Assembly: GCA_026066175.1 (NCBI GenBank)
Contig: GCA_026066175.1_4721.1
Direction: 5' to 3' (one strand)
DNA: 64,000 bases
DNA from: a phage
Made by a program: the position numbers and the translations under genes. The notes under the pieces were generated by a model, which saw only the letters and a program-made list of their open reading frames with translations, did not search any database and was not told the DNA's origin. Of this stretch, positions 3,781 through 49,185 are shown one piece after another. Numbering within the stretch: position 1 is the stretch's first letter; each line of letters starts with the position of its first letter.

Positions 3781-5094
3781 TCACTTAGACACCGCCATGC
3801 TTCGCGCTAACGCAACGTCGTACGCATCCATGATTGCGTCGCCGATAGCAGTATGACGAATCAACGGAATACCTACGTCTGGATACTCTTTGGTACCCAT
3901 GATCGATACCGGTTTGTCCTGATAGGCTGCGATCATCGAACGAATGTCCTGAACCTGGTTGTATCGGCAGATGGGTTTAAAGCCTGCTTTACGGAACCAA
4001 TACTCTAATTGAGGCCAATCGGTTTCACCGCGGGCAAGATAATAGAAGGTATCTTTACCGTAGTATTCTGTCATTTTGTCACGAATATTGTTAACGAACG
4101 CATTGACTTCAGCAATGGCTTCTTTATAGCCCATTACCTTACCATGCTGGAAACAATAATCACGTGCTTCTTTCGGTGCTTTGGTTTGCCACCACTCTAC
4201 CGTTGATTCGCTGATACGACCACCGTCAGCGATTTGACCGTGCACGTCAGGGAAGACATCAATACGCGGACCGTTAACGATGGATTCTGGATTAGCCAGA
4301 TCGAAGAACACGATACCGATTTCTAACAACACCCCGTTCTTTTCCAGACTAAGGTTCTCAACATCCAAACAGAATGCAGGCTTCTCTACCGCTAATGGCT
4401 CGAATGAATGGTTGCTGGTATCCGACTCAGCTTCGAGTTCGGTGGCGTCCAGATCGGTATCCGCAGGTTTCAGTTCTAATACAGCATTATCAAGCCCGGT
4501 TAACGAAAAATAGTCTTCGAAGAAATCGGGTACCGTCATGCCATGCAAATCGATACCACAATCTTCCATCCATTGTTTAAACTGGCACTCATCGACATCG
4601 ATCGCTAAACGGCATGGTCCGTAACGATTATCCAATGACGCATCAATCCAGAAGAAAGTGCGTATAAGTAAGTAAGGATTATGCTCCGCGATGATTTCTT
4701 GGCTAGCGTGAGCATCATACACCATTACCTGTATTATTTCCTTACGTGTGTTATACGGATCAACCATCAATCGCCGCACGACTTCTCCCAGGTATTCCAG
4801 CGCACGTGTGTACACGGTAGATCCAACTTGTCCGTACGCGCTTATACCCGTCAATAGTTCCTTATAAGACGCGTCTGAAAGCGAAGACGATAGCACACGC
4901 GCCAGCTCGGCATTGTATATACTGCATGATTTCTTCGGGGCGATAGCATCATGTAACGCTTTAATAAACGCTGGTCCATCAATATCAAACAACCATCCTT
5001 GGCGTCGGTGGGCGGTATATCGTAATAACGCACCGATAGCTGCCTGGGGTGGTGTATATTCTTTTTCGTTAATTTCAAACAGTAGTTCGCTCAT
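3781..5094 (-). CDS. Protein with a C-terminal DnaQ-like DEDDh 3'-5' exonuclease domain
   Basis: Motifs LDVENLSL (Exo I, D-x-E) and HTAIGDAIMDAYD (Exo III, H-x-A-x-x-D-A) in the translated ORF. Confidence 0.5.
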   Translation of the reverse strand: MSELLFEINEKEYTPPQAAIGALLRYTAHRRQGWLFDIDGPAFIKALHDAIAPKKSCSIYNAELARVLSSSLSDASYKELLTGISAYGQVGSTVYTRALEYLGEVVRRLMVDPYNTRKEIIQVMVYDAHASQEIIAEHNPYLLIRTFFWIDASLDNRYGPCRLAIDVDECQFKQWMEDCGIDLHGMTVPDFFEDYFSLTGLDNAVLELKPADTDLDATELEAESDTSNHSFEPLAVEKPAFCLDVENLSLEKNGVLLEIGIVFFDLANPESIVNGPRIDVFPDVHGQIADGGRISESTVEWWQTKAPKEARDYCFQHGKVMGYKEAIAEVNAFVNNIRDKMTEYYGKDTFYYLARGETDWPQLEYWFRKAGFKPICRYNQVQDIRSMIAAYQDKPVSIMGTKEYPDVGIPLIRHTAIGDAIMDAYDVALARSMAVSK

Positions 5095-5110
5095 TTTAAC
5101 ACCTTTTTTG

Positions 5111-5446
5111 TTATTCTGGTTTATCTGCTGACAGACCGAGACCCGCCAGTATTACGTAGTCGTACCACGCTTTTACTTTTGCTTTCGCGTCATCTAAACT
5201 GAATTCGGTGACGTAAGGAAATTCGCCGTTGACTTGGAAAGGCAGCTCGCAGGTGTAGCCGGTATGATCCTTCCAACCTTTCCATTCGATAATCAGAAGA
5301 CCAAAAACAGTCTCAGCGGTAACATGATTGTAGCGGCACGCTTCGTTTGGCGGATATTCTTCCGACCAGGTAATCTCCTGCTGTGCTAAAAGCTGTTGTA
5401 CGACCGCTAACGGTTGTTCCTCATTAAGTTCGATACTATCGATCAT
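5111..5446 (-). CDS. Hypothetical protein (111 aa)
   Basis: ORF on the gene strand; 4-nt overlap with the upstream gene. Confidence 0.4.
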   Translation of the reverse strand: MIDSIELNEEQPLAVVQQLLAQQEITWSEEYPPNEACRYNHVTAETVFGLLIIEWKGWKDHTGYTCELPFQVNGEFPYVTEFSLDDAKAKVKAWYDYVILAGLGLSADKPE

Positions 5447-6039
5447 CGGATACCCTCTTTCTCTTTATCGTAATCACTGCAAACATTAACGAATGCCGTA
5501 TTGCTGGATAGCACACTTACCATCTTACGGATTGCATCCAGCGGTTCAAGTTTAGGATCAATTAACGCACCGGTCAACACGCTGATTGCTCGTGCGATCT
5601 CAGCCAAATTAACATTTGGGTCTTTGTCGTCAATAATGAGCAAACTCTTTGCTGACTTCCGGCGACGCTTGACGATCAACAAGAACGTAATCAGGTTCTC
5701 ACGCCACGCATCAGAATCCAGATTACGTATCAGGGTTAATGCCCGACGTTCTTCTGCCCAGGATGGTTTCTCACGGATCACCGGCATGTAAGCTAATTGT
5801 TCGGCAAGTCCTTTCAGACTGACGCGGTTGGTCCCACCAGGATGTTCGCTGATCCTCAACATCTCGGTTAATATACGCACATATGCGGTTGTTGTTGATA
5901 CGCCACGTAGCGGCAAGAACAAATTATGTCCTGGAACACCATCATGGCTCAACGGTGCGATATAAGTCATGAACCAGCGAATATCATCGTCGGTTTGTTC
6001 TCCAACGACGAATGTAAACGCCTCACGTAAAACACTCAC
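5443..6039 (-). CDS. Hypothetical protein (198 aa)
   Basis: ORF on the gene strand. Confidence 0.4.
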   Translation of the reverse strand: MSVLREAFTFVVGEQTDDDIRWFMTYIAPLSHDGVPGHNLFLPLRGVSTTTAYVRILTEMLRISEHPGGTNRVSLKGLAEQLAYMPVIREKPSWAEERRALTLIRNLDSDAWRENLITFLLIVKRRRKSAKSLLIIDDKDPNVNLAEIARAISVLTGALIDPKLEPLDAIRKMVSVLSSNTAFVNVCSDYDKEKEGIR

Positions 6040-6325
6040 GATGAAATCTCCTTAACGCTTCTTGTATACGTAATCTCTTCGGTAGGTACAGACGTTTGTA
6101 CAAATCGATTAACAGATAACGCAACACTGACGCGACCACCAGGTACTCACCCTCGGATTCGGAATAGCGGATCATGTTAATCGGGTAATTCAAATAAGAA
6201 TAAGAAAAGAGATCATCGTTAGTAAGGCGATGATCCTCAAGATACTGACGAAATATGTTTGCTAAGGCATCGTACTCCATTCCGTAGTAACGCAACGACA
6301 CCTGTCTTGCAGACAGTCGTTTCAT
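6023..6325 (-). CDS. Hypothetical protein (100 aa)
   Basis: ORF on the gene strand; start may be internal. Confidence 0.35.
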   Translation of the reverse strand: MKRLSARQVSLRYYGMEYDALANIFRQYLEDHRLTNDDLFSYSYLNYPINMIRYSESEGEYLVVASVLRYLLIDLYKRLYLPKRLRIQEALRRFHRECFT

Positions 6326-7164
6326 GCTGGGTTACCTTTTAGTTTTTCGCGTATCGCTTCAACAACGCTTGAAGGATCAGTAATAATGGCCGCGATAAGA
6401 TAATCGATAGGTATGTCAAGAATGATTTTCTTCAATTGAAAGGTCGTATCTTTACGACGTACACCGTAAAACACACCATCCTTAAACACGACTTCGTATG
6501 AAATTGGGAGCTGGCTAATGATGGTATTGGCGTAATCCCCTAACCACATCGACCCCGCCATCAAGTGCGCACAAATTGCATGACTGATACGCACATCCTT
6601 GTTCTTCTGGCTGACATCTTTGATTTTAGCCATGGCGACCAGAAGTTCACCAACCTTATTCAGCATGTCGTCGTATACCCCGAAGAACTTAATCAACTGC
6701 CGCGTCCCTAACGACATATACGTCTCTCGAGGTAACACACAACACACCTGTGGTAACGTACCGACACCATAGACGCAACTGTGGGGTGATAACGGAAGCA
6801 GGTCAGCAACCGCATTTTTGATGTTGTTGTAAGCCGTGATATCGTTGAAGGGTGAAAGGCCTTTTGTCATTGGCTTATCGATCGCTACATCGAACTCGGC
6901 AAACGTCCATGCGGCTTTACGAAGTTGCCCCTTTTGGTAGGGCGGGGCCAATACCGCAACAACACGAAGACGGTACTCATGGGTATCACGCAATGTGAGT
7001 TGAATGCCTTCATCATCCCCTTTACGTACAAGCAGATAACGACTTGCGCATCCATCACACACCACCGTGGGTTCATGTTGACCGTACGCGGCGAGGATCG
7101 GTTTACTAAGATCTTTATCGCAGTGTTTACAATGATGATCTTGTTCCTGATAACAGATTTTCAC
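6322..7164 (-). CDS. Hypothetical protein with N-terminal Cys-rich (zinc-ribbon-like) segment
   Basis: HHCKHC ... CDGC spacing near the N-terminus. Confidence 0.4.
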   Translation of the reverse strand: MKICYQEQDHHCKHCDKDLSKPILAAYGQHEPTVVCDGCASRYLLVRKGDDEGIQLTLRDTHEYRLRVVAVLAPPYQKGQLRKAAWTFAEFDVAIDKPMTKGLSPFNDITAYNNIKNAVADLLPLSPHSCVYGVGTLPQVCCVLPRETYMSLGTRQLIKFFGVYDDMLNKVGELLVAMAKIKDVSQKNKDVRISHAICAHLMAGSMWLGDYANTIISQLPISYEVVFKDGVFYGVRRKDTTFQLKKIILDIPIDYLIAAIITDPSSVVEAIREKLKGNPA

Positions 7165-7178
7165 GATTAACCCCTCTG

Positions 7179-8135
7179 TTAATGTAAAACGCGATTTGCC
7201 GGAGCTACAACGGCGTTATCCATAGACAGATTCGTTGCTTTACGATCAGGACTGAATCGACGCGCATTTTCTTCGTGATGGTTAGCAGGGTTATCTTGTC
7301 CCATCAGTTCCTCTGCCTCACTGAACGAGAGTTCTCGAAAGCCTTTCGGATACAAGAACAACGGCTCATCAACATCCAACCCTTCGACAAATCCATGCGA
7401 TAACCAGACACTACCATCTACACTGTAAAGAATCGGTTCGATATCATAATCCAGAACGTACTGATACCAGTAGTTAAACAACTGGGCAATCCAACGGTTA
7501 CGCAGTAAGTAATCAATGACAATCGCGCTACGTACGCTGTGACACCAGCCGATTTTACCGTCAACTCTCTGCAGCAAGGTGCCGTCATTTGCTTGCCGGA
7601 TAACCGCATTAAACAGCCACACGAGATCGGTTGCGAAACTTGCCGCGTCTCGGATGTCGGGGATGTAACGCATGGGTATCGTCAGATGAGAACGGTATTT
7701 AGCCAATGCTTCTTCACCGTTGTCCCCTTCAACACAGAGAATACCATTCGCCGATAGATGACCTTGATTCAACGACTGGGCGATGTAAAGCTCGCCAATC
7801 TCGTTAACATGTTCGACTGTCCCTAGGGTTAACTCGGACATAAAACGGTCGAGATCAATAGGCATCGTCGTGCTCGCAATAAACGGATTCATAGGTCGGT
7901 TTTTATCCGAGAAAACGATCGACCAAACAGCTGCACATTTCTCATCGGTTGGCACAAACGAAACATGCCATTCCTTACGTTTATTCACCACGGACACTTT
8001 CGATGCTTTCCAGCAATGCGTACAAACATAACCGGTGTCTTGTAATGGCGTATCCGAAAACACATCGTAACGAATCGATGCAATTGCGATATCATGCCCG
8101 CAGTGAGGGCAGGTGGTATCAATAAGCGTTTTCAT
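7179..8135 (-). CDS. Hypothetical protein with N-terminal CxxC...CxxC zinc-ribbon-like segment
   Basis: Start trimmed from 8198 to ATG 8135..8133, preceded by AAGGA; CPHCGH ... CTHC. Confidence 0.4.
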   Translation of the reverse strand: MKTLIDTTCPHCGHDIAIASIRYDVFSDTPLQDTGYVCTHCWKASKVSVVNKRKEWHVSFVPTDEKCAAVWSIVFSDKNRPMNPFIASTTMPIDLDRFMSELTLGTVEHVNEIGELYIAQSLNQGHLSANGILCVEGDNGEEALAKYRSHLTIPMRYIPDIRDAASFATDLVWLFNAVIRQANDGTLLQRVDGKIGWCHSVRSAIVIDYLLRNRWIAQLFNYWYQYVLDYDIEPILYSVDGSVWLSHGFVEGLDVDEPLFLYPKGFRELSFSEAEELMGQDNPANHHEENARRFSPDRKATNLSMDNAVVAPANRVLH

Positions 8136-8139
8136 TTTG

Positions 8140-8400
8140 TTAAATTCCTTTTGATAAAAATACGTGGATGTCTGTAAGCTGTTCTTCGGGGATATCATCA
8201 GCTGCTGTTAGAACCTTGGGACCATGTTCGTTGAGGTAGGCTTCCCGCTGAAGCTGATGGAATCGATTGGCTTCTTGGAACTCGGTGTCCGTCATGTAAA
8301 CCAACTTGTACTTCGAACGTTTATTCGGATTATATCTCTTATTACGTTTCTTTGGTTTCTTCGCCATAATAGCCTCGTGAAGGTGGATGGCGCGTACCAT
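8140..8400 (-). CDS. Hypothetical small basic protein
   Basis: K/R-rich N-terminus (AKKPKKRNKRYNPNKRSK); start uncertain. Confidence 0.3.
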   Translation of the reverse strand: MVRAIHLHEAIMAKKPKKRNKRYNPNKRSKYKLVYMTDTEFQEANRFHQLQREAYLNEHGPKVLTAADDIPEEQLTDIHVFLSKGI

Positions 8401-8415
8401 CCACCTTCCTCCATG

Positions 8416-8946
8416 TTAAAGTGCGTTCAATTCTTCAGGTGTACGTACGGTACGGGTGTTAGGATCAACCATTGCCGGTGTGCCAGCAGGACATTTGCGA
8501 ACATCGATCCGCATCTCAGGTTCGATCGGACGAATACGGTATGTTTTACCGTCATCGGTTAATACCGAAATCGTCAACGCCTGGTTCAGTTCATTAACGA
8601 AGTTCACCAAACGTTGTTGACCTCCTTTCGCCCAGAAGTTAAGATCGGTTTCTCCATTGAAATAGCTGATCCCTTCAGCGGTGCCAATCGTGATCTTAAC
8701 GATGCCAGGATAATCACGAAGAAGAGGTGCTTGATAACCTTCGTCCTCTGTATCCAGTTTTACCCACGCACCACCTGTGGACAAGCAATTAACTTCTAAC
8801 GCGGTTGGTGCACTAACCTCCGCTGATGACCAGGTATACATGGTACCTAGTTTTGCGTGTCCGGTTTCCAGTTCGCTGTAATCCCAAGCCTGTGCTGACG
8901 CGGTAATAAAGAAAGCAGCAAGAAACAACTTTTTCATTCTTTTCAA
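8416..8946 (-). CDS. Putative secreted protein with N-terminal signal peptide
   Basis: N-terminus MKRMKKLFLAAFFITASAQA has a basic n-region, a hydrophobic core and an AxA-type cleavage site. Confidence 0.5.
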   Translation of the reverse strand: MKRMKKLFLAAFFITASAQAWDYSELETGHAKLGTMYTWSSAEVSAPTALEVNCLSTGGAWVKLDTEDEGYQAPLLRDYPGIVKITIGTAEGISYFNGETDLNFWAKGGQQRLVNFVNELNQALTISVLTDDGKTYRIRPIEPEMRIDVRKCPAGTPAMVDPNTRTVRTPEELNAL

Positions 8947-8991
8947 TTCCTATTAGAGTGACCGATTATAGTGGTCGAGATTGCTAATAAC

Positions 8992-9426
8992 TTAATTCTG
9001 GTATTGTTTTCGTAATGCGCGATTACGTTTGCGTTCTTGGTTTTTAACGGTACCAAGAAACAGCTTCAATTCTGACGGTTTAAGCGTACCCTCACGTACC
9101 GCACCGTTTTGTTCGATGTGGTACGTCCAATGATCAACTTCCGCGGTTAAGACTAACGTGGTAGGTTGTTCGTCAGGTAGCGCACGCGGCGAGAAAATAA
9201 ACAACAACTCAAAAGGCGTTTCTCGGCTAATAACAGGACGGATGCTCACATCGAGACCCTCCCATCGCTGGGGTTTAAGCATACCGCCAGCAGCACTGAT
9301 CGTTTCCGAACGTTGATCTACAAACTCAGCGAGTTCCCGATCGTCATTAAAGTAGATCTCATGCAAGATATCCGTGTCGATATAAAACCCGCGTTTAAAA
9401 TCGTGACGAACAATTGAATTCTTCAT
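8992..9426 (-). CDS. Hypothetical protein (144 aa)
   Basis: ORF on the gene strand. Confidence 0.4.
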   Translation of the reverse strand: MKNSIVRHDFKRGFYIDTDILHEIYFNDDRELAEFVDQRSETISAAGGMLKPQRWEGLDVSIRPVISRETPFELLFIFSPRALPDEQPTTLVLTAEVDHWTYHIEQNGAVREGTLKPSELKLFLGTVKNQERKRNRALRKQYQN

Positions 9427-9478
9427 TTTAACGCCTTTTGTTGTTTGCTATCATGTCCTATACGAACATGAAAAATCG

Positions 9479-9754
9479 TTAATCTTTACCGTTGAACGTA
9501 ACGCCACGGCCGGTTACCGACGAAGGAACCTTGAGATAATAGAAGTAAATGTAATTGTCGCGATGGCTAAAATGGTTTTTGCAAGCATAGTACTCTCCAG
9601 CTCCAATGAATGATTTAATACGTGTAATTTGAGGGTGTCGTGCAAGCAACGCACGTATCACGATTTCCATCTGATGGTCATTCAAACCCGGTCGTGCGTC
9701 GACGTGGAAATGAAGGTCCTTGAGGAACCGTTTCCAGGGATCAGGCTTTGACAT
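9479..9754 (-). CDS. Hypothetical protein
   Basis: Start trimmed to ATG 9754..9752, preceded by AAAGGAGGTG. Confidence 0.4.
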   Translation of the reverse strand: MSKPDPWKRFLKDLHFHVDARPGLNDHQMEIVIRALLARHPQITRIKSFIGAGEYYACKNHFSHRDNYIYFYYLKVPSSVTGRGVTFNGKD

Positions 9755-9794
9755 CGTCACCTCCTTTAATAAGTAGCAGGAATGCGGCATAGAA

Positions 9795-9812
9795 CCCTCC
9801 CCGGAGGGAGGG
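9795..9812. terminator. GC-rich hairpin (ccctccc / gggaggg)
   Basis: Inverted repeat in the intergenic gap. Confidence 0.4.
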
Positions 9813-11566: not shown

Positions 11567-11604
11567 CGTACGTACCTCTTTGACTGTATTAATAAATCGT
11601 GTTT

Positions 11605-11645
11605 ACTCACGTAAGTAATATAGCCGTGAAAGGATTTGTATTGGC
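11605..11645 (-). promoter_or_regulatory. Candidate phage early promoter, copy A (minus-strand TTTCACGGCTATATTACTTACGTG)
   Basis: One of four copies of a conserved motif with a TATATTAC core, each 50 to 100 nt upstream of a minus-strand start codon. Confidence 0.4.
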
Positions 11646-11772
11646 ACGTTCGACGTTCATCGTATTTTATGGATTGTCGAATGACGTCATTTTAAGGGAC
11701 ATCCCCGGCCTCCTCCCCAGGAAAGGTGTGGGGAGGAGTTTTTACCAGACTTTTATTAATTCGAGTGCGAGT

Positions 11773-48987: not shown

Positions 48988-49185
48988 TTAACCTTCCATC
49001 TTCAATGAGGGATGGTTGACGATATGTGCATGTTTGGTTGGGTCATACGACTGATAAGGGAAATAGCCATGCCATTGACGGCCTTGACATTTCGTACACA
49101 GGAACTGACCATCACGGCGTTGATGCTCGTATGCCAATTCAGTGCTATCAACGTGACCGCAACGTTCGCAGATAAACAGCGACAT
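48988..49185 (-). CDS. Small zinc-ribbon protein (65 aa)
   Basis: CERCGH ... CTKC spacing. Confidence 0.4.
   Translation of the reverse strand: MSLFICERCGHVDSTELAYEHQRRDGQFLCTKCQGRQWHGYFPYQSYDPTKHAHIVNHPSLKMEG

Follow-up and report, generated by a model that had tools for sequence, protein, structure and literature searches.

Two adjacent genes of a 64,000-nt stretch of phage DNA (further referred to as the window) encode, as judged by sequence comparison, a real pair of lineage-specific proteins, A and B, which carry putative zinc-ribbon-type heads and have mutually unrelated bodies. The bodies resemble neither each other nor anything known outside two lineages of jumbo phages. Our best guess at their role, to which we assign a probability of about 50%, is that they are zinc-ribbon proteins with a binding role that are expressed together and act at an early stage of infection. 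The window shows 82% nucleotide identity to Escherichia phage Goslar, and its source is evidently a relative of Goslar, i.e. a chimallivirus (nucleus-forming jumbo phage). Most genes of nucleus-forming jumbo phages are expressed early, and the majority of those are without known function.

Both open reading frames are present as given in the first-pass annotation, an earlier description made from the sequence alone, and lie on the minus strand, which it had left unstated (Table 1). They are co-oriented within a long minus-strand operon, in a neighbourhood that includes genes for an HD hydrolase, a metallophosphoesterase, a 3'-5' exonuclease and a thymidylate synthase. Gene A starts with GTG just downstream of the Shine-Dalgarno sequence AGAGGGG, and its stop overlaps the start of the next gene by 4 nt. 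The ATG of gene B is located 4 nt past the TAA of the upstream gene, with AAGGA just 5' of it. The start of gene B was set at 8135 given the Goslar annotation and the fact that all homologs begin with MKTLID or MKQVF. The mechanical open reading frame of gene B runs on to 8198. The direct orthologs in Goslar are gp151 (QBO63944 / YP_009820836) for A and gp152 (QBO63945 / YP_009820837) for B, both annotated as hypothetical proteins; their order, spacing and flanking genes are the same. The amino acid identity to these orthologs is 87% for A and 75% for B. Purifying selection acts on the two genes (omega of 0.04–0.08 for A and 0.10–0.12 for B), and gene A is conserved to a similar degree as the neighbouring genes.

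Table 1. Position of the two genes and of their main features in the window.
Feature	Position	Strand	Description
Gene A	6322..7164	-	280 aa; ortholog of Goslar gp151 (Goslar_00151 / HOV27_gp151)
A zinc-ribbon-like cluster, residues 12-39	7048..7131	-	CKHC-x20-CDGC; conserved LAAYG between knuckles
B-A intergenic spacer	7165..7178	-	14 nt; holds the Shine-Dalgarno sequence of A (AGAGGGG)
Gene B	7179..8135	-	318 aa; ortholog of Goslar gp152 (Goslar_00152 / HOV27_gp152)
B conserved C-terminal region, residues 199-298	7242..7541	-	motifs DYLLRNRW and R(F/Y)SPDR
B zinc-ribbon-like cluster, residues 9-41	8013..8111	-	CPHCGH-x22-YVCTHC

Protein A begins with MKICYQEQDHHCKHC...VVCDGC and protein B with MKTLIDTTCPHCGH...YVCTHC. 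The resulting Cys layouts, C12-x2-C15-x20-C36-x2-C39 in A and C9-x2-C12-x25-C38-x2-C41 in B, both fall within the two-knuckle C4 spacing (CxxC pairs ~10–30 residues apart). The four Cys of each protein are unchanged in all Goslar-group homologs and in a second phage lineage described below, where the identity is 23–31%. Invariant positions among the A homologs, including the 25–31% identical protein P0016, are C12, C15, L24, A25, A26, Y27, G28, C36 and C39; those among the B homologs of both lineages are C9, P10, H11, C12, G13, C38 and C41. The motif CxxC-x(8-40)-CxxC was sought in residue shuffles that retained the composition of each protein. Counted anywhere in the sequence, it occurred in 0.38% of the shuffles of A and 0.07% of those of B; at the N-terminus, the values were 0.03% and 0.003%, respectively. 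Being rare in shuffles and invariant in all homologs, the four-Cys cluster noticed at the start of both products in the first-pass annotation stands. In the window, 3 of the 69 genes bear this motif (the third is 48988..49185), and about 0.09 adjacent motif-bearing pairs are expected by chance at this frequency; hence the adjacency of A and B taken alone is only weakly non-random.

None of the curated zinc-ribbon profiles of Pfam and NCBIfam scored above the gathering threshold for A, B or their distant homologs. Sub-threshold zinc-ribbon matches are confined to residues ~1–45 of the two proteins, the best scores being 16.1 bits for zf-Di19 (cut-off 27.5) and 16.6 bits for Zn_ribbon_Com (cut-off 22.9), the latter obtained from P0016 and its companion P0017. 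Short zinc-ribbon motifs often score under curated cut-offs. In the AF2 model of B, built from a shallow alignment and having an overall pLDDT of 43, residues 1–65 have pLDDT of 51–71 and contain β-strands; in the model of A, also from a shallow alignment, pLDDT is below 50 throughout. The heads of A and B resemble C4 zinc ribbons (Zn_ribbon_Com, zf-Di19 and Zn_ribbon_IS1595; Lar and ECs_2282_CxxC of NCBIfam) in having N-terminal CxxC knuckles 20–25 residues apart with invariant Cys, in the β-strands predicted around the knuckles by AF2 with low confidence and, in the case of B, in the CPxCG-type first knuckle. They differ in setting: Com and Lar are single-domain proteins of ~50–65 aa, whereas in A and B the ribbon heads a protein of 280–318 aa with a novel body. 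Membership of B in the Lar family (TIGR03655) was rejected, as the match, with 14.1 bits, falls short of the cut-off of 39.6 and is limited to residues 8–47 of this 318-aa protein. Zinc ribbons are frequent in phage proteins, and their ligands are many and varied.

The remaining parts of the proteins, described in the first-pass annotation as about 250 to 300 residues of unassigned function, comprise ~240–280 residues and indeed match no family. Searches of Pfam, PHROGs, NCBIfam and PADLOC with A, B and the distant homologs gave nothing over threshold; the defence-associated and anti-defence models of PADLOC-DB yielded 0 families for A and B at E up to 1; and sequence and profile searches of PDB with both proteins produced nothing meaningful. 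The AF2 models (pLDDT 38 for A and 43 for B) were too poor for use because the alignments, with 6 and 8 close homologs, were too shallow. Foldseek comparison of both low-confidence models with PDB returned noise only (best E of 0.7–1.0, TM about 0.1). In the literature searched for gp151, gp152 and their accession numbers, we found rows of an RNA-seq table and no discussion.

Homologs of A and B were sought in several collections. The word-index search returned Goslar-group relatives only, tblastn against 50,697 phage records returned Goslar only, and scans of IMG/VR, JGI metagenomes and GTDB genomes gave Goslar-group relatives or nothing. The sole search that yielded a new lineage was the exhaustive one with A, covering 1.84 billion representatives, which retrieved the distant A family P0016/P0017 with E of 6.5e-19. 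This second lineage consists of ~255-kb phages (L021–L023) with orthologs of A and B that are 23–31% identical. In each, a B-like gene for 338 aa (hhalign probability 98.7%, E 2e-16) precedes an A-like gene for 272 aa, and the spacer between them is 15 nt (9985 to 10001 in L021) versus 14 nt in the window. Downstream of A, a dUTPase gene stands in for the 100-aa gene of the window, and the small genes on the upstream side are not the same either. The gene order is kept over the whole block; hence the retained adjacency of B and A says little in favour of a specific link between them. Near the metallophosphoesterase and HD hydrolase of Erwinia phage Yoloswag and Proteus phage 10, which served as anchors, genes resembling A or B were not found. 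Outside the two jumbo-phage lineages, the bodies appear to have no detectable relatives.

The expression class of A and B was read from published RNA-seq data on their Goslar orthologs (bioRxiv 10.1101/2023.09.20.558163). In Sup. Table 2 of that study, gp151 has 1000–1131 reads and gp152 has 1043–1288 reads. Upon ChmA knockdown, the log2FC of these two genes equals +0.25 to +0.65, that of the gp142–gp159 block ranges from −0.4 to +1.2, and that of the divergent gp160 and gp161 is about −5. The Goslar operon equivalent to that of A and B is transcribed early, and the phage nucleus is not required for this.

The first-pass annotation had suggested that A and B are diverged paralogs or share a nucleic-acid-binding module, a suggestion to be abandoned if nothing but the Cys spacing was common to them. 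Comparison of the heads (N-terminal ~60 residues) by hhalign gives a score of 35.0 (probability 84%). In controls where the four Cys columns were held and the remaining columns were shuffled, the score was 13.7 ± 2.6, and the real value was reached in 0 of 200 shuffles. The ribbons of A and B are more alike than the Cys spacing alone accounts for. Most of this signal is generic and the excess is modest, given that, with an unrelated 65-aa zinc ribbon of the window, A already reaches a score of 24.7 and B one of 20.8. The bodies (residues 46–280 of A and 44–318 of B) score 11.8, compared with 14.3 ± 2.4 for column shuffles, 129 of 150 of which match or beat the real score, and 14.1 ± 2.9 for other proteins of the window; the body profiles used here spanned two deeply diverged lineages. 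In the post-ribbon N-terminal region the score is 8.3 versus 8.8 ± 1.9 for shuffles. BLASTP of A against B gave no match, and no further paralogs of either protein were found within the window. A likeness of the C-terminal halves seen by eye (a helix, then a DG-turn hairpin) was ruled out by the shuffle and background controls. Since the similarity past residue ~45 does not exceed background, paralogy of A and B is not supported; of the earlier suggestion, the shared zinc-ribbon-like module survives, largely as generic signal, and the diverged paralogs do not.

It could still be argued that A and B arose by an old tandem duplication and are paralogous over the full length, their bodies having diverged past recognition so that the ribbon alone still aligns. 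Their adjacency on the same strand, their similar lengths (280 and 318 aa), the same sort of N-terminal module and the ribbon similarity above Cys-fixed shuffles are in line with this. Moreover, broadening of the profiles lengthens the collinear hhalign alignment to 68 columns (probability 54%) and later to ~200 columns, and the low-confidence AF2 models have a similar order of elements (ribbon, β-hairpin, about 4 helices, β-hairpin, helices). However, the longer alignment scores no higher (34.8) than the ribbon by itself (35.0), the bodies taken alone score under both column shuffles and other window proteins, and the post-ribbon region is at the shuffle level. Further, an unrelated ribbon reaches 21–25 against each protein, and the shared order of secondary structure rests on models with pLDDT below 45. 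We consider such a duplication unlikely. In the reading that we prefer, each N-terminal segment would fold as a zinc ribbon and serve as a small binding head for a nucleic acid or protein partner, and the attached body, specific to the lineage, would be an effector or a scaffold. Joint transcription, the short spacer and the retention of the pair make it most likely that A and B serve one and the same process of early infection, and they may form a hetero-complex within the surrounding early block of nucleotide- and DNA-metabolism genes. A somewhat doubtful alternative is that the two proteins are functionally independent, having zinc-ribbon heads by coincidence and being neighbours through block synteny alone. 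The frequency of zinc ribbons (with a third one at 48988..49185), the weak adjacency statistic, the conservation of the whole block rather than merely the pair in the second lineage, and the discordant phylogenies of A and B speak for independence. Against it, the pair has stayed contiguous at 14–15 nt although the immediate downstream and upstream genes were replaced, the transcript levels of the orthologs are almost equal, and the ribbons of A and B score 35 with each other compared with 21–25 for the unrelated ribbon.

Gene B is a local diversity hotspot, with 53–78% nucleotide identity inside the gene versus 80–93% in the flanks. Its alleles form three types, at 100%, 75% and 60% identity, which are discordant with the flanks and out of step with the phylogeny of A. 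B alleles recombine independently of A, which counts against a tightly co-evolving interface, at least one formed via the variable N-terminal half of B. Such turnover might reflect an arms race if the pair, or B alone, took part in host takeover, countered host defence or were recognised by host immunity, an interpretation that we find improbable. Early, nucleus-independent expression of the Goslar orthologs, the lineage-restricted, accessory character of both genes, the restriction of the diversity dip to gene B and a very weak match of the B ribbon to the Lar restriction-alleviation family (E 0.045) would agree with it. It also has a precedent in JADA (Pa36 gp316 / phiKZ_124), an early, chimallivirus-restricted protein with a novel fold and few conserved residues that is sensed by Avs5 (PMC12931631). 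A and B resemble JADA in being early-expressed and lineage-restricted, and differ from it in the zinc motif, of which PMC12931631 makes no mention (the word "zinc" is absent from it). Identity of A or B with JADA was ruled out by the gene context (HD hydrolase, metallophosphoesterase and exonuclease, not nvRNAP) together with the lack of PDB sequence matches. On the other hand, PADLOC gave no matches, the Lar match remains far below its cut-off and covers the generic ribbon only, and A is strongly conserved. No positive selection on B was detected at this resolution (dN/dS of about 0.1, segment pN/pS at most 0.42). Mosaicism is not peculiar to B either, other genes of the block, e.g. that of the exonuclease (41–88%), being equally mosaic. 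A more specific version, in which the pair is an early two-protein zinc-ribbon module of Goslar-type phages operating at the interface with the host prior to formation of the phage nucleus, e.g. at the early-infection vesicle, with A as the conserved core and a cassette-like B facing host immunity as an inhibitor or a sensed trigger, is a long shot. Least probable by far is a role for A or B as a diverged enzyme of replication, e.g. a primase of the DnaG/T7 type, or as a transcription factor that resembles TFIIB and serves the phage RNA polymerase. The DnaG, T7 gp4 and T4 gp61 primases and TFIIB have an N-terminal zinc-binding domain ahead of the body, and the likeness of A and B to them is purely architectural (a ribbon followed by a body of ~250–300 aa), accompanied by the DNA- and nucleotide-metabolism neighbourhood. 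No Toprim, primase or TFIIB/cyclin match was obtained with Pfam or NCBIfam at E up to 1, and PDB sequence searches gave none. Catalytic acidic motifs of the EGxxD and DxD types are absent among the invariant residues, and A is almost devoid of conserved acidic residues. With neither domain nor motif signal, these identities were dropped.

The pair is now defined by a conserved head that putatively binds metal, by early expression independent of the nucleus and by retention in two deep lineages, and it contrasts a conserved partner, A, with a hypervariable one, B. By itself it opens no new question and overturns nothing. With these properties, and with clear orthologs in Goslar, a phage amenable to experiments, it is a fair candidate for knockdown and localisation screens.

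The best-conserved part of protein B is its C-terminal region, with pN of 0.11 versus 0.18–0.23 at the N-terminus. The two motifs of this region (Table 1) are kept in the second lineage despite 23% overall identity. Several His, Asp and Glu residues of protein B are invariant (H199, D208, D240, E273, E276, H287 and D297), so that an enzymatic body of B is possible.

A and B, the products of two adjacent minus-strand genes, form a co-transcribed, early, constrained and lineage-restricted pair (see the table). The window is related to the nucleus-forming jumbo phage vB_EcoM_Goslar of Escherichia (genus Goslarvirus, genome 237 kb). Region 5000-9500 of the window shares 82% nucleotide identity with Goslar across 97% of its length, and in the phage record search this region matched no other phage record. 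The orthologs in Goslar, both annotated as hypothetical proteins, are Goslar_00151/HOV27_gp151 (87% amino acid identity to A) and Goslar_00152/HOV27_gp152 (75% to B). Pairwise Nei-Gojobori comparison with eight relatives (dS about 1 or more) put omega at 0.04-0.08 in gene A and at 0.10-0.12 in gene B. A and B are real genes under constraint.

Features of the window considered in the analysis
Feature	Coordinates	Strand	Remarks
Rv2179c-like 3'-5' exonuclease	3781..5094, especially 5001..5150	-	mosaic
Gene A	6322..7164	-	280 aa; GTG start; Shine-Dalgarno AGAGGGG ahead
Gene B	7179..8135	-	318 aa; ATG 4 nt past the stop of the upstream gene; AAGGA ahead
86-aa protein	8140..8400	-	very basic N-terminus (AKKPKKRNKRYNPNKRSKYK); directly upstream of B
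176-aa protein	8416..8946	-	signal-peptide-like N-terminus (MKRMKKLFLAAFFITASAQA)
Divergent intergenic region	~11567..11770		between HD hydrolase (-) and SNF2 helicase (+)
Third CxxC-x22-CxxC protein	48988..49185	-	65 aa, MSLFICERCGH...FLCTKC

The two N-terminal four-cysteine clusters reported by the first-pass annotation are indeed present at these positions, both on the minus strand. In translation they read C12-x2-C15-x20-C36-x2-C39 in A and C9-x2-C12-x25-C38-x2-C41 in B. Composition-preserving shuffles produced such a motif in 0.38% of cases for A and 0.07% for B, its N-terminal placement being about ten times rarer again. Only three of the 69 window genes carry the motif: A, B and the gene of the 65-aa protein, whose sole match is a weak one to PHROG 11861, a family of unknown function. 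The four cysteines are invariant in every homolog found, in the A and B families alike.

No relatives of A or B outside Goslar-type phages were found in a 5.8-billion-protein word-index search, by tblastn against 50,697 phage records, or in IMG/VR, JGI metagenomes and GTDB genomes. When the A profile was run exhaustively as an HMM against 1.84 billion representatives, one further A family emerged, P0016 (272 aa; 31% identity across 152 residues, E 6.5e-19), which retains the four cysteines and LAAYG between the knuckles; members of its cluster sit on 255-259-kb contigs. In this second, distant jumbo-phage lineage (lineage 2, contigs L021-L023) the block order is that of the window, with a divergent SNF2 helicase, HD hydrolase, metallophosphoesterase, more genes and an exonuclease, and the orthologs are 23-54% identical to those of the window. 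There, a 15-nt spacer separates the A-like gene from the gene directly upstream, which encodes a 338-aa protein. In hhalign this protein is B-like over 282 columns (probability 98.7%, 23% identity, E 2e-16), and it retains CPHCGH-x25-CESC exactly, as well as DY(L/M)LRNxW, R(F/Y)SPDR and the C-terminal LH. Lineage 2 has kept the pair and both cysteine clusters, so that these are old features of the phage group; since the whole block is broadly syntenic, the adjacency of A and B is by itself weak evidence for specific coupling. The small genes upstream of the pair differ from those of the window, and where the window has a 100-aa gene downstream of A, lineage 2 has a dUTPase instead. The B-like gene is intact in L021-L023; on the 3.5-kb Logan contig L010 (2..764) a frame change divides it into two ORFs, which probably reflects misassembly or a pseudogene in the sample concerned.

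The first-pass annotation had suggested that A and B either are diverged paralogs or share a nucleic-acid-binding module. By BLASTP they have no similarity. With shallow profiles, hhalign aligned the heads (N-terminal cluster segments) alone, over 34 columns with probability 19%; with P0016 and the first lineage-2 fragment included, the heads aligned over 68 columns (54%), and the N-terminal domains taken alone, over 58 columns (84%, score 35.0). When the cysteine columns were fixed and the others shuffled, the score was 13.7 ± 2.6 and 0 of 200 shuffles reached 35.0; thus the profile alignment finds the heads alike beyond the cysteine spacing. Both begin with MK and have C-x-H-C; an acidic or small residue follows knuckle one, and V/Y-V-C leads into knuckle two. 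The 65-aa protein, used as an unrelated-ribbon control, had scores of 24.7 with A and 20.8 with B, so that most of the head signal is generic to zinc ribbons, and the excess specific to A and B is modest. Past the ribbon the N-terminal regions show no similarity (8.3 vs 8.8 ± 1.9), nor do the complete bodies (A 46-280 vs B 44-318) in two-lineage profiles, which score 11.8 (shuffles, 14.3 ± 2.4; other window proteins, 14.1 ± 2.9). A long collinear alignment of the rich profiles scored 34.8, with no score gained. A head signal without a body signal supports a shared zinc-ribbon type of module but not full-length paralogy, which was not detectable in sequence and profile comparison.

Each protein thus consists of a conserved C4 zinc-ribbon-type head and a novel body unrelated to that of the other. 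In Pfam, PHROGs, NCBIfam and PADLOC nothing scored above threshold for A, B or their distant homologs; all sub-threshold matches were zinc-ribbon families limited to residues ~1-45. PDB sequence and profile searches were empty. The structure prediction proposed as a check gave unusable AF2 models (pLDDT 38 for A, 43 for B, with only B residues 1-65 attaining 51-71), and Foldseek returned noise. A and B are an ordinary kind of phage feature, zinc-ribbon-headed proteins of unknown function, with novel bodies. Primase, TFIIB-like and Lar (restriction-alleviation family) identities were rejected, as was JADA, the early chimallivirus protein sensed by Avs5, which is always located downstream of an nvRNAP subunit (PMC12931631); PDB matches for A and B were nil.

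Expression was taken from Goslar RNA-seq at 30 min, non-targeting control vs ChmA knockdown (bioRxiv 10.1101/2023.09.20.558163, Supplementary Table 2). HOV27_gp151 had 1000/1131/1102 reads and HOV27_gp152 1043/1288/1167; their log2 fold changes on knockdown were +0.55/+0.65/+0.29 and +0.51/+0.47/+0.25, respectively. The entire minus-strand block gp142-gp159 behaved alike (−0.4 to +1.2), and the divergently transcribed gp160 (helicase) and gp161 were down ~5 log2 units. The framework of that paper treats knockdown-insensitive genes as early ones, whose transcription from the early-infection vesicle precedes formation of the nucleus (bioRxiv 10.1101/2023.09.20.558163). This places A and B in an early polycistronic unit, which fits the absence of strong terminator-like sites on the minus strand from 11566 to ~2425. 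The Goslar counterpart of the divergent intergenic region parts gp159 (log2 fold change ~+1) from gp160/gp161 (~−5) (bioRxiv 10.1101/2023.09.20.558163). As the early operon and the nucleus-dependent genes are parted there, the region should carry back-to-back promoters for the two phage RNA polymerases. The mechanically called helicase ORF (GTG at 11599, 751 aa) is probably ~58 codons overlong compared with the 693-aa Goslar helicase.

The pair is kept in two deep lineages with one partner conserved and the other hypervariable. A shows 87-91% identity across the same genomes, typical for the block, and B falls into three allele types (~97-100%, 75-77% and 60-61%), the closest A relatives (L003, L017, L002) bearing the most distant B. 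In a 150-nt sliding comparison the drop to 53-78% identity stays within the boundaries of gene B (flanks 80-93%). The first 100 codons of B evolve about twice as fast as the C-terminal 120 (pN 0.18-0.23 vs 0.11); pN/pS does not exceed 0.42, which does not demonstrate positive selection. B looks to have been replaced like a cassette or to have diverged at an accelerated rate. Such patterns are common among host-interaction genes, and because B is variable, it may act at the host interface or in anti-defence. The mosaic pattern is not unique within the block: the exonuclease (360, 437 or 440 aa) has 41-88% amino acid identity to relatives, and at its 5' end nucleotide identity reaches 85-90% with L003, L016 and L017 but only 16-21% with Goslar, L002, L013 and L015, which suggests replacement of the N-terminal domain. 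At 9651..9800, a 150-nt patch covering the start of the 103-aa gene 9479..9790 and the sequence upstream, nucleotide identity drops to 46-51% with all seven relatives (flanks >80%).

The heads of A and B would bind zinc and, as small modules, nucleic acid or protein; the two proteins would take part in one early process, perhaps within a single complex. A role in nucleotide or DNA metabolism is hinted at by the neighbourhood, which comprises HD hydrolase, metallophosphoesterase, exonuclease and thymidylate synthase genes and, in lineage 2, a dUTPase gene. Residues of A invariant across lineages are mostly hydrophobic, Gly or Pro, with few charged, and include the motif VYGVGT(L/M)P. Those of B include H199, D208, R212, D240, E273, E276, H287, R293, D297 and R298; given these His, Asp, Glu and Arg residues, B may be enzymatic. 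Some features make the pair a tractable target in Goslar. The 86-aa gene is also kept upstream of the lineage-2 B-like gene (L021 8536..8748, 35% identity); the conserved unit may thus comprise three genes instead of two. The 176-aa protein is apparently an exported early protein of a nucleus-forming phage; no other gene in the early block is as well conserved as its gene (96-97% amino acid identity to four relatives, 41% in lineage 2).

In lineage 2 the SNF2 helicase has a LAGLIDADG insertion (1044 vs 694 aa; L022 900..4034, L023 901..4035) and a GIY-YIG/NUMOD3 homing-endonuclease gene interrupts the thymidylate synthase gene (L022 16895..18488); mobile elements are therefore active in the block. 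A 295-aa early-block protein (L021 15480..16367) has the precomputed annotation PF26125, AcrVA2-like, contrary to hmmscan, which assigned it no Pfam family at E up to 0.1.
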